From Heptranchias perlo (Eukaryota): DNA of 64,000 bases. The notes below the pieces were generated by a model, which did no database searches, had not been told where the DNA came from, and saw only the letters and a program-made list of their open reading frames with translations. The translations under genes and the position numbers were made by a program. This document shows, one piece after another, positions 21,587 to 34,158 of this stretch. How positions within the stretch are numbered: the first letter of the stretch is position 1; the number at the start of each line of letters is the position of its first letter. Location of the stretch: positions 15,872,001 to 15,936,000 of the forward strand of contig NC_090359.1 of NCBI RefSeq assembly GCF_035084215.1, read 5' to 3'.

Positions 21587-24319
21587 ATGGCCTCCCAAGT
21601 GTGTCAGAACTATCACAAGGAGTGTGAGGATGGTGTCAACAAGCAGATCAATATGGAGCTCTATTCCTCCTATGTTTATCTTTCTATGGTGAGTTTTCTA
21701 TCTGAGGTATTATTTCAAAATTATGGCTGTGGTGTCATTTTAATCTGAGCAGGTAGAATTCTCTGAAAATGAATTGGCTTTGGAGTGTACCTCTGTGACC
21801 CTCCCAATTTTTTTTCTGATTTTGGTTCTGAGCTGCCAGTTATCTTCAATCTCTGTCCTCTGGTTACTGACCCACCTACCAGTGGAAACAGTTCCTCTTA
21901 ATTTCCTCTATCAAAACCCTTCATATATTTTGAACACCTCCATTAAATCTCCCTTTAACTTTTTCTGTTCTAAGGAGAACAATCCCAGTTTCTCTAGTCT
22001 CCCTCATCCCTGTAGGTTGAATGTGGAAATGAAAATTAAATCCAAAAGCATTATTGCTTTCCTGTTTTCTATTACTACAACCTCTTGTCTTGTTGAGCTA
22101 CTTCACAGGGAGGGACTTTCAACATATTCAGTAAAGATCAATGAAGCAAAGTGAGATTGACTTTTAAGAAAAATGCTTTTTTTTTTAGACACTGAGCCCC
22201 TTAATTCCAAGCACTGTGGCAGAGAATGGGTAATTTGTCTACTGTGATGTTGCTGCCATTTTGAATTGGCCATTAATGAGATCTCTGTCTGACCTGACTC
22301 TTCCATTTTATCTCTCTAGTCTTATTACTTTGACCGGGATGATGTTGCCCTGCGTCACTTTGCTGAGTTCTTCAAGGAGCAGTCACATGAGGAACGGGAG
22401 CACGCTGAGAAACTGCTGAAATTCCAGAATCGGCGTGGGGGCCGAATCATCTTGGAGGACATTAAGGTTCGGTTCAGCAAACTGAAGAATTGCCTTGGTT
22501 TTGTGAAAAGTGGACTAGTTTGGTCTTGCTCAATAGATTTTCAATTGAGTTGTCTGGAGGAGGATTAATATTATAAAAATGGATCCTCAAAGTAGGAGAT
22601 TTCAGGCTCTAATTTAAGTGAGAAATTAGAAGTAACCTTGTGACACCAGCAAAACTGTGTGGAGCAGGAGGCAGAGTTGGGATCAAATCGATCAACTTTG
22701 AGTAGATCATGACAATTAGTGCTAATGCTCTGTAATTGCAAATAGTGGCATAGTGAGCTCTGAAGAGCAAAAATTGAGGGAGCAAGTGGATGATTTTGAT
22801 GGTCGATGCAGTTTAATGAAGTAGTCCACATCAGATGGCAGTATGAGCAAAGGGATTAGGGAGTCTCGAGGACAAATGTCAAGTTAGCTTGTAGGTGGAA
22901 TAAAAGACTAATTGGGTTCATCCCGAGGCACAGAATTTAAAAGCAAGGAAGTGTTAGTGCTAGTTAGACCTCATTGGAATGATCTTTCTTGGGATACCTG
23001 AAAGCATATACTGCTGTGAATGAAGTGCAACAACTCATTCCCAGGGTATCTCGTAGGATGAACAGACTAGTAGAACCTGTGTGGTCCCCTGGTTTGGGGA
23101 ATCTAGAAGTGACATTGACTTGTGATCCTACTAATGCCTGTTATGCTCAAGGACAAGTAATTTTCAATTTCATATACTAACCACTTATTTAGTTGTTGAC
23201 TAGAATAATTTTTTCTCCATTCTTAATCTTCCCTTTCCAGAAGCCAGAGCAGGATGAGTGGAGCAATGGTCTGGAGGCGATGCAGAGAGCTCTGCAGATG
23301 GAGAAGAATGTGAACCAGAGTCTGCTGGATCTGCACAAACTGTCCACTGAGAGGACAGACCCTCATGTAAGTCCTTAATGTCCATAAAAGGATTTGCATT
23401 TATATAGTTTTTCAGGATGTCTCAAAGTGCTTTACAGCAAACAAGCTATTTTTGAAGTGTAGTCACTGGTGTAATGAGGGAACAGGGCAGACAATTTGCA
23501 CATGGCAAGGTCCCACCCACAGTGATGTCCAGGTAATCTGTTAGTTGGTTAAGGGCTGCTAGCCAGGACACTGGAGAAAACTCCCCTGCTGTTATTCAAA
23601 TAATGCCAGGGGTTCTTTTGCATTCAGCTGAGGGCAGATGCAGCCTCTAGTTAACATCTCATCTGAAAGATGGCCCTTCTGACCATGCAGCATTCCCTCA
23701 CTTCTGCAGTGAAGTGTGAGCTTGGATTGTGCTCCACACTCTGGAGTGGACTTGAATCTCTGGCACGAGTGCTACCATTGCCAACAATTGGTATGTTTGT
23801 TTTTGGGTGATTTGAAGACTCTCCGCTTAATCTGTGATGATATTTAGAAATGTTTCTCTATCCAGTAGCTTTGTGTTGATCTTTCACAAGAGAATGCAAC
23901 ACTGGAATCTTCTTAAAATGGGTTAGTGCATTAAGGGTTTAGGGCACTCCAGTAAATTCTTTTAAAAATACTAATCAGTGGTTCCAACTCTAAATTAATA
24001 AATATATTTCCTCCAGGAGTAATGCAATCTGACACACAATCCACCAATCTGTGCAGGAGTTGTACCAGTTATCCAGTCCAGAAGAGGATCATGAATAATC
24101 CCCAGGGGAGGTTAAGCTCAGACCCTGGATATTGTCTCCTCTGAGCTAATGTACTTCATATTTTTCTTCCAGTTGTGTGACTTCCTGGAGACCCACTACT
24201 TGGATGAACAAGTGAAGATGATCAAGAAGCTTGGAGATCACATCACCAACCTGAAGAGACTGGGAGCCCCTGAGAATGGCATGGGAGTGTACCTGTTTGA
24301 CAAGCACAGCCTGCATTGA
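21587..24319 (+). CDS. Ferritin H/M-type subunit copy 1 (173 aa). Exons 21587-21688, 22320-22466, 23241-23366, 24173-24319
   Basis: [10 protein letters not shown]...[31 protein letters not shown] (ferroxidase-equivalent residues intact); canonical 4-exon structure; AATAAA at 24405. Confidence 0.95.
23420..23780 (-). mobile_element. SINE in ferritin 1 intron 3
   Basis: Homologous to 35960-36320 and 57930-58330. Confidence 0.55.
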
Positions 24320-31605: not shown

Positions 31606-34158
31606 ATGGCTTCCCAAGTGTGTCAGAACTATCACAAGGAGTGTGAGGATGGTGTCAACAAGCAGATCAATATGGAGCTCTATTCCTCCTATGTTTATCT
31701 TTCTATGGTGAGTTTTGTTTCTTTGATGCCTTCACATTGGAGATTCTAATGTGACATTACAAAATTCTGTTTTCTCCAACTCATCAATTGCCTTTTCTCT
31801 AATATGCACCCCTCCCCCCAATTGATGGATGGTGAGTGTCTTTTTAAAGCTGTAATATAATGTGATTTATTGTACAGTCATTGTCAAAATGTCTCCCTCT
31901 TCCTTGCAGTAGTTGCACCACATTCTATATCTTAAATCTCAATTGTTCACTTTCCTGGTGTCTGAGCTTTCTAATGAAGTTGTGTTTTGCAATACACGCT
32001 GCATTCAATGCCTGGGATTCATATTTCTTACCCTCTATTCTACATCTCTCCACAGTCTTTCCCCACATTCTCCTTGCAATGGGGGGGGGGTCATAATCTT
32101 AAATTAGAGCTAGTCCATTTAGGAGGTAAGTGAGGAAGCACTTTTCCCCTCAAAGGTACTGGAAATCGAGAACTCTCTCCCTTGAAAGTCTGTGGATGTT
32201 GGGGATTAATTGGTGCTTTCAAGACTGAAATCTTTTGTTGGGTCAGGGTATTGAAGGATGAGTTGATGTCCAGATCCATGTTCTAATTAAATCATTGAGT
32301 TGGCTCAAATGGCTGTATGTCCCACTTCTGCTTCCATGCTCTGAACCTTCACTTTTTAAGTACCAGCTTGTCCCTGTCTGTCTTCTCTCTCTGCCTTTGC
32401 TCTATTGGTGGTAGGGCCTTCAGTCATTTTGGTCCTACTCAGTGTAACTGTTAATCCCTTTGCCTTCCTACCTCTGTCTGTCTCTCAAAGCATTCAAATG
32501 CTAACAGTTTCTAGTCATGCAACTCTTACTGCTTGGTATCTGTTTCTCCTCTGAAATGCCTTGATGTTTAGTGTTGAAGGTGCTAAGTTAATGCTGTTTG
32601 TGGTAGTTGTAGAAAGGGGTTTGTTTCAAATTTCAGTCATGAAAAGGATGTAAGCTTTTATGTTCCTTCACTAATTTCTAGACATATAATTCAGTCTTGG
32701 GTGAAGATTAAAGTGAAATATTGTGTTGAGCATGTTCAAAGCTGAATTGGTAATTTTCCATTGGCCAGCTTCCCTATTGCTGGGAGTGAGATTATCTCTC
32801 TACCAGGTTAGTGAAGCAAGTCAGCCTGTGCTAGTTTTCAGAACCATCTGCCTACAAGCTCAGTGAGACTTGAACCCTTGACAGAAAGCAAAATATTGAG
32901 GTTGGCTTTATGTACAATACCCATGATGATAATTCTGATACCCAACTACTTTTGATCTCACCAGTCCTATTACTTTGACCGGGATGATGTTGCCCTGCGT
33001 CACTTTGCTGAGTTCTTCAAGGAGCAGTCGCATGAGGAATGGGAGCACGCTGAGAAACTGCTGAAATTCCAGAATCAGCGTGGGGGCCGAGTCATCTTGG
33101 AGGATATCAAGGTTAGATTTAATGGAGTGGCCTTCTGAATGGCTCCCCTTAAATGGACAATTTTAAATATTTCTAAAGCAATTTGTTCTAATGCACATAA
33201 TTACATAGAATGTCCAGCACAGAAACAGGACATTTAGCCCAACTGGTCTATGCTGGTGTTTATGCTCCACGTGAGCTGCCTCCCACCTTCATCTTGCCCG
33301 ATCATCACATCCATCTATTACTGTCTCCCTCAGTACTTCTCCTTAAAGACATTTATACTATTTGACTCGTGGTTGTGGTGGTGTAATTCTATATTCTTGG
33401 GACAATTGGTTCATGGCAACATAGACATCTGATTGCTTTTCACCCCTATTTTCCTTCAGTACTTTCTTGTGTATTTTGTTTAATCCATTAAGTGAACTGG
33501 CTGAGACCTGATTCCCTTTTCAGAAGCCAGAGCAGGATGAGTGGAGCAATGGTCTGGAGGCGATGCAGAGAGCTCTGCAGATGGAGAAGAATGTGAACCA
33601 GAGTCTGCTGGATCTGCACAAACTCTCCACTGAGAGGACAGACCCTCATGTAAGTTTTTAATGTGGGCCTTTGGGTAAGTTCGAGGTGGTGGAAATTTAC
33701 TGTCCTTGAGCCTATTCAAAAGATCTTCATACCCAATAGCTTTGTTGGTGTCATGCTCAAATTTTATTGGGGAGGGGAGACAGGAAAGGGAGATTGCCCT
33801 ACTGTCTGCATTAGAAGTAAATGTATCTGATCCCAGGATCGAAGCACTTAATAGAGCAAAGTTACTGTATAAAATGCATCAATCTAAAGTGCACCACTTG
33901 ACTATCCTCCAGACCAAGAAGATTAAAATCCAAACCCTTGGAGAAGCTCAGATCTTCCTCCATCTCTTGCTGGACATGACTATTTTCCATCTTTTCTTCC
34001 AGTTGTGTGACTTCCTGGAGACCCACTACTTGGATGAACAAGTGAAGATGATCAAGAAGCTTGGAGATCACATCACCAACCTGAAGAGACTGGGAGCCCC
34101 TGAGAATGGCATGGGAGTGTACCTGTTTGACAAGCTCACCCTGGGGGAGAGTGATTGA
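31606..34158 (+). CDS. Ferritin H/M-type subunit copy 3 (176 aa). Exons 31606-31707, 32965-33111, 33524-33649, 34003-34158
   Basis: Open spliced frame; HEEWEH variant; AATAAA ~34295. Confidence 0.95.

Follow-up and report, generated by a model that had tools for sequence, protein, structure and literature searches.

The window analysed here, 64,000 nucleotides (nt) of the genome of Heptranchias perlo (NC_090359.1, positions 15,872,001 to 15,936,000, forward strand), contains three neighbouring ferritin genes with nearly identical exons and strongly diverged introns, and it is very likely that this triplet, together with the large family it belongs to, is best explained by DNA-level concerted evolution of the exons in an old ferritin array. 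The three genes are:

21587..24319, plus strand: ferritin gene 1, exons 21587-21688, 22320-22466, 23241-23366 and 24173-24319, 173 amino acids (aa), Pfam PF00210 on exon 2
26546..28768, plus strand: ferritin gene 2, a three-part chimera, exons 26546-26647, 27304-27450, 28060-28185 and 28616-28768, 175 aa
31606..34158, plus strand: ferritin gene 3, exons 31606-31707, 32965-33111, 33524-33649 and 34003-34158, 176 aa

All three are intact four-exon ferritin genes in which every intron is GT-AG. A PDB search with exon 2 of gene 2 gave ferritin heavy chains, a Pfam search with exon 4 alone gave no family, and at introns 1 and 3 of gene 3 contigs of run X9 (organism B; our guess is RNA) join at the predicted splice sites. 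An earlier note on this DNA had described nearly identical exons between introns without visible similarity. As to the exons this is accurate, because 16 of 375 sites vary in exons 1-3 and the initial 133 nt of exon 4 are identical in all three genes; the pairwise synonymous divergence (dS) is 0.089, 0.058 and 0.069 and the nonsynonymous divergence (dN) 0.008-0.010. The intron lengths are also as noted then (631/774/806 nt in gene 1, 656/609/430 in gene 2, 1257/412/353 in gene 3). As to the introns, the description applies with strict scoring, where nine of nine triplet pairs lie at or under the maximum of 50 shuffles, but not fully with lenient scoring, where three of nine slightly exceed that maximum, and a profile search finds faint homology among some intron types, with intron 1 of genes 1 and 2 giving the best match (E 5e-34), while its reversed-sequence controls gave no match.

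Conversion among old paralogues, as proposed for the triplet in that note, is upheld, but it is not confined to three genes, as the family has more than 100. An exact 27-mer of exon 4 has 124 matches in the genome (control 0); of the 100 listed, C38 has 61 and C43 35, while C3, C5, C15 and C30 have a single one each, the layout being a tandem array of about 0.5 Mb on C43 and dispersed blocks on C38. The sequence examined comprised all of C43:4240001-4805000 and part of C38 (31 chains against the 61 listed matches), with C725 and C1048 left out. It holds 110 four-exon chains, of which 108 belong to clusters, 2 are processed and 94 are intact; with the 2 processed and 14 broken or mis-modelled chains dropped and the 2 edge paralogues used as outgroups, 92 copies remain, which for some tests were reduced to 51 lineages (95% intron identity) or, without the codon-59 class treated below, to 42. 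The exons of the 92 are 88-100% identical to gene 2, and the two edge genes of the C43 array have only 76-80% identity to other members. For each intron there are four or five main types plus singletons, in 13 combinations, and intron identity among the 92 copies runs from 99% down to unalignable, within types down to 64-72%. This within-type range, together with the faint profile links, argues that the triplet introns share a very old origin and have since diverged by ordinary decay, and are not unrelated DNA. It would be highly improbable, then, that all genes are young duplicates with introns quickly rewritten by insertions and deletions: many copies are young, as the reduction from 92 to 51 lineages indicates, and repeats are present in several introns, but the within-type identity grades down by substitution, profiles link the types, and the same types are found in other organisms. 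The proteins of the 92 genes are 173, 175 or 176 aa long, with hardly an exception according to the 3' type, and three C-terminal tails persist in the array though the remainder of exon 4 is uniform.

The comparison of dS with intron divergence had been suggested in the earlier note. In young pairs the two go together, with a median dS of 0.009 at an intron distance of 0.013 and of 0.019 at 0.027, but dS then levels off while the introns diverge to unalignable: the median is 0.048-0.10 across intron distances from 0.08 to 0.33 (92 intact copies) and 0.10 in the 2044 pairs without intron match, and to the two edge paralogues the array copies have a dS of 0.9-1.4. As dS tracks the introns in young pairs and is that high to the edge paralogues, the synonymous sites are free to change, yet they are alike within the array, and the pair test on the 92 copies thus gives a dS that is uncoupled from adjacent neutral divergence without synonymous constraint. 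The opposite has also been considered, namely that there is no exchange and that strong selection holds the synonymous sites of old paralogues in a birth-and-death process with constraint. The low dN in the array (about 0.02) and the third positions with 66% G+C, against 39% in the introns, would agree with it, but neither the match of dS to the introns in young pairs nor the divergence from edge paralogues of similar G+C at third positions does, and synonymous sites are fixed differently among organisms, while a processed copy on C30 retains alleles that have been replaced in the array. This explanation is largely refuted and we regard it as very unlikely.

The latter points come from contigs of other organisms, which were compared with gene 3 (organisms B, C, D and E) and with genes 1 and 2 (C, D, E and G); all figures are weighted by contig depth, which is not copy count, and are based on 40 of about 120 rows per comparison, from short contigs in which rare variants are lost. 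Intron-only bins of all three genes are covered to at least 80% by contigs of organisms C, D and E, best in D, where, for instance, intron 1 of gene 2 is matched across 183 nt with 28 differences, and three such intron stretches match only ferritin regions of the genome (among 40 of 67, 40 of 91 and 10 of 10 candidates). That the contigs of other organisms cover the intron types suggests that these types are older than the splits from those organisms. Two exon positions are informative in this comparison:

31671, plus strand: synonymous site 66 of the coding sequence (CDS), T in all 92 array copies, whereas the two edge paralogues have C
34118, plus strand: codon 164 (CDS 491), which encodes Val in all 92 array copies but Glu in the processed copy on C30 and in the two edge paralogues

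At CDS 66, C makes up 95-100% of the contig depth in organisms C, D and E, and B has mostly T; at codon 164, Glu makes up 84-100% in B, C, D, E and G. Here, then, a synonymous and an amino-acid change are fixed across all array paralogues, and both are nearly absent in three other organisms. Elsewhere the other organisms have synonymous differences of their own, at CDS 321 in 99% of depth in D only, at CDS 396 in 99% in E only, and at CDS 454 near-fixed in D and G, with 38% in C and 2% in E. There are four processed ferritin copies (on C3, C5, C15 and C30), and the one on C30, with 51 differences in 496 and a gene-3-type tail, has the other organisms' allele at four of seven testable sites chosen beforehand, alleles that now occur in 0-1 of the 92 copies; the three less decayed ones hold the new codon-164 allele. 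A copy that combines a gene-3-type tail with the former alleles suggests that the new alleles spread sideways after the 3' types already existed, and with the intron coverage in the other organisms it makes the paralogous lineages older than the fixed changes. The same data speak to the least credible of the alternatives, that assembly or polishing merged the exons onto one consensus. Near-identical repeats are generally known as a hazard in this respect, but copies hold private variants common to close relatives with matching introns, and the independently assembled contigs of other organisms are likewise uniform in their exons, with different alleles.

As to the mechanism, linkage, homoplasy and segment tests, used in lieu of GENECONV, point to short DNA-level conversion with occasional crossovers in exons. 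In the 42 lineages the mean linkage (r2) is 0.17 for sites no more than 15 nt apart, drops to 0.06 at 16-60 nt and is 0.03 between exons, and near site pairs that span an exon junction have all four gametes in 20 of 20 cases, with an r2 of 0.034 at 16-60 nt. In exons 1 and 2, third-position differences are about three times as frequent in the last 24 nt as in the cores, and cross-type identity reaches background about 14 nt into the introns, intron 3 included. Non-CpG synonymous variants that occur in at least three independent flank groups exceed the expectation, with 11 transitions against 4.2 and 3 transversions against 0.55. It can be envisaged that selection at the protein level keeps the exons similar enough to pair, that tracts of tens of bases would then be copied between any members and carry synonymous sites along, and that these tracts would not extend past the limit of homology, some 14 nt inside the introns, so that sites at exon edges remain tied to their own intron and the introns are too diverged to take part. 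Occasional crossovers within exons would exchange whole promoters, introns and 3' ends, and a piece of the C43 array would have been copied to C38 and amplified there.

A recent crossover product of this kind appears to be present in the triplet itself, as gene 2 consists of parts with different closest relatives:

21261..26659, plus strand: segment A, gene 1, spacer, and promoter plus exon 1 of gene 2, 96.5% identical to G000:C43:4735884-4741306
26648..27303, plus strand: segment B, intron 1 of gene 2, with 95.7% identity to its counterpart in the gene at C43:4730913
27301..36000, plus strand: segment C, gene 2 from exon 2 onward through gene 3, 97.1% identical to C43:4721310-4712638 on the opposite strand (36000 being the end of the stretch compared)

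The match of segment A stops 12 nt inside intron 1 of gene 2, the gene at C43:4730913 has introns 2 and 3 that cannot be aligned with those of gene 2, and both joints of the chimera are at exons (exons 1 and 2). Judging from these matches, DNA recombination has produced the triplet, and the block was put together recently; sharing of intron 1 at 96-97% is found in 2 of 1275 lineage pairs. The mosaic relationships seen earlier are real, since the promoters of genes 1 and 2 are 89% identical across 407 nt, five of six variable sites in exon 1 group genes 1 and 3, and four of eight in exon 2 group genes 2 and 3, but much of the mosaic stems from the chimera, which explains why the promoter groups genes 1 and 2 and why the edge sites of exon 1 single out gene 2. 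A table of intron-1 against intron-2 types was dropped as proof of exchange, since the table alone fits a tree; the intron-1 sharing at 96-97% and the segment matches serve as the evidence instead.

Reverse-transcribed ferritin mRNA could in principle have served as the main template that overwrote the exons, and the earlier note had considered such complementary DNA (cDNA) because of an adjacent source of reverse transcriptase. The source exists, in the form of a reverse-transcriptase open reading frame (ORF) of 1097 aa inside the window, the four processed copies imply that ferritin mRNA has been reverse-transcribed in the germ line, and exon 4 is the most uniform exon, in line with the 3' bias that the cDNA model predicts in the parts of its description available (PMC4987113). 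However, all 108 clustered four-exon chains retain three introns, the shortest of any being 120 nt, co-transfer across junctions is not seen in the r2 of 0.034 and the 20 of 20 four-gamete pairs, cross-type identity extends about 14 nt into intron 3, and swaps of promoters and whole introns require DNA donors. With respect to the 3' bias, exon 4 is least variable, exons 2 and 3 are equal, and the 3' untranslated regions (UTRs) are not homogenised. A cDNA template is thus not needed to explain the exon similarity and is unlikely as the main route, although a share of small within-exon tracts may be of this origin.

Conversion of short tracts at the DNA level, favoured from the beginning, is supported by every test run (dS, cross-organism alleles, linkage, homoplasy and intron retention). 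There are, nevertheless, observations that weigh against concerted evolution of the exons or soften it. The exon tree clusters by intron type beyond shuffles (16 changes against 27.9), meaning that mixing is incomplete; the cross-organism data are short depth-weighted contigs without a tree of those organisms; the homoplasy excess is modest, and the Poisson null behind it does not allow for sites that change at different rates; and variability in exon 4 (0.008) is about a third of that in exons 1-3 (0.025-0.035), as a 3'-biased cDNA route predicts. A recent sweep of codon 164 would, with weak support, equally explain the uniform exon 4. A sweep trough centred on codon 164 was looked for in a window scan around it and set aside, as only a shallow and indecisive dip was found.

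With regard to function, the ferroxidase ligands at H-chain positions 27, 34, 62, 65 and 107 (numbered via PDB alignment, the list being taken from the available part of PMC6929972) are all present in the three window genes, and in 92, 91, 79, 88 and 92 of the 92 copies, respectively. Codon 59, which aligns with H-chain residue 62, encodes Lys or Asn in 12 of the 92 copies and Asp in one, and in these 13 copies exon 2 is 9.9% away from the consensus, against 2.1% in the others, with exons 3 and 4 at about 1%. Nine of the 12 Lys/Asn copies share one intron-2 type that is also used by genes with ordinary exon 2. E62K together with H65G abolishes ferroxidase activity and mimics an L chain, according to the part of PMC6929972 accessible, and selection may thus shield a predicted L-like subunit, encoded by the divergent exon 2, from conversion. 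Another substitution lies beside the ferroxidase ligands of gene 3, where codon 60 (window position 33040) is changed from Arg to Trp; at this CpG site Trp is found in most sampled gene-3-type copies on C38 and in other intron lineages, too.

The regulatory regions of the triplet are:

21300..21586, plus strand: promoter and 5' UTR of gene 1, TATAAA at 21504-21509; a search found no iron-responsive element (IRE)
26253..26545, plus strand: promoter and 5' UTR of gene 2, the 89% block shared with gene 1, derived from a gene-1-type lineage
31323..31605, plus strand: promoter and 5' UTR of gene 3, a 71.5% block shared with gene 2, TATAAA at 31524-31529

In place of the TATAAA of genes 1 and 3, gene 2 has TATCAA (window 26457-26462); the promoter of gene 3 is also homologous, its 71.5% identity to gene 2 extending across 418 nt, and all three promoters contain several motifs that we take to be CCAAT/ATTGG boxes. 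No IRE was found in window positions 21000-35000 (E up to 1) or in four array loci (40 kb), and an Rfam scan of the triplet region had as sole match a bacterial small RNA at chance level (E 0.76). An IRE is present before the edge paralogue L082 at C43:4243594 (C43:4243490-4243594), which is likely the ordinary iron-regulated parent gene. Since the array genes are without an IRE, while this edge paralogue has one, and since their neighbours on C38 are amplified ZP genes, the array would likely serve the bulk supply of iron-independent egg ferritin. Put together, a wider picture can be drawn, tentatively and with more doubt than confidence. The family would have worked for hundreds of millions of years as a shared pool of exons of 100-150 nt, in which new alleles, that of codon 164 included, sweep through all old intron lineages within a species. 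Exons would be the places where promoters, introns and 3' ends are exchanged as cassettes, and in some of the copies one exon would be protected by selection, which would preserve a ferroxidase-dead, L-chain-like subunit of a mixed egg ferritin; part of the copying may be RNA-templated.

Some further members of the family deserve mention. The other edge paralogue, L081 (C43:4257259), has Lys and Gln at H-chain positions 61 and 65 and is, as predicted from these residues, possibly without ferroxidase activity. Between L081 and L082, on the minus strand at C43:4249370-4251400, there are matches to exons 2-4 at 79-85% and none to exon 1, so this is either a third divergent gene or a remnant. A broken copy at C43:4724942, with a frameshift in exon 1 and a damaged exon-2 end, has counterparts at C38:9738438, 10320746 and 11636637; this type was amplified on C38 together with intact genes. 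Beside the ferritin genes, the window contains:

6157-9032 and 39075-41923: a ZP pair with ZP-N domain, 94% alike when the first copy is taken as 6174-9032 (93-98% throughout)
14588-17881, minus strand: the reverse-transcriptase ORF, 1097 aa, RVT_1
10987-21100, minus strand: tandem retrotransposon copies of the long interspersed nuclear element type, with endonuclease and zinc-knuckle ORFs
55420-56543: a 54-bp tandem unit in about 21 copies, about 92% alike and open in several frames

Copies of the ZP-N-domain gene have multiplied in the part of C38 that also contains the ferritin blocks (about 9.1-20.8 Mb), and on C725 and C1048 as well; the family has 172 candidates, the best 40 of which are at 98-100%, and the amplification looks like a young amplicon of egg-related genes. 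The ZP pair, whose similar introns had been contrasted with those of the ferritin genes, does exist and is alike throughout, but it was rejected as an age-matched control because it is a young duplicate of another amplified family, one of 172 candidates.

The ferritin array matters beyond its own case, as it offers a vertebrate system in which tract length, homology thresholds and the use of DNA or RNA templates can be measured, and the copies with a divergent exon 2 provide a direct test of selection that resists conversion. Coding trees and dS would date the family as young and species-specific though the introns show it to be old, a caveat that bears on claims of lineage-specific ferritin expansion. 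Such an expansion has been described for shark ferritins (bioRxiv 10.1101/2024.09.09.611499), with more than 100 copies, mostly in few large clusters and mostly full length according to the portion of the preprint consulted, and the present array, likewise with more than 100 clustered and mostly intact copies, is probably that cluster. In the main text of that preprint the words "conversion" and "concerted" occur 0 times and exons and introns are not compared. A literature search, with most subscription papers beyond reach, did not turn up any account of conversion in a ferritin array of fish.

Among ferritins, the X-linked FTHL17/FTHL19 paralogues of mammals are comparable in that conversion has been proposed for them (PMC2724270), but copies are few, the evidence is weak (GENECONV found none), and the available text of the report has no exon-intron contrast. 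RT-mediated, that is, cDNA-based, recombination shares with the array the processed copies and a 3' trend in uniformity, but its hallmark, precise intron loss (PMC4987113, as far as accessible), is seen in 0 of 108 genes here. In the MaSp spidroin cluster of Argiope (PMC9779670, excerpts), like here, old lineages are preserved in flanking non-coding DNA and coding parts group within species by conversion; there, however, the genes are repetitive silk genes and introns are homogenised within genes, whereas here they are left behind. A model that yields the order seen here is that of HMA4 in Arabidopsis halleri (bioRxiv 10.1101/2025.10.29.685298), where, in the sections of the preprint available, interlocus gene conversion leads to mosaic divergence in tandem paralogues, with a synonymous equilibrium as introns diverge, aided by purifying selection and short tracts. 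HMA4 has three copies and a long-intron divergence of up to about 6%, unlike the ferritin array with its more than 100 copies, unalignable introns, exons of 102-156 nt and lineages that have exchanged whole introns. Exon-limited conversion has thus already been modelled, and the array adds very short exons, more than 100 genes, introns beyond alignment and processed-copy "fossils" in the same genome: the process is known, and the scale, the shuffling of cassettes at exons and the shielded exon-2 class are new.

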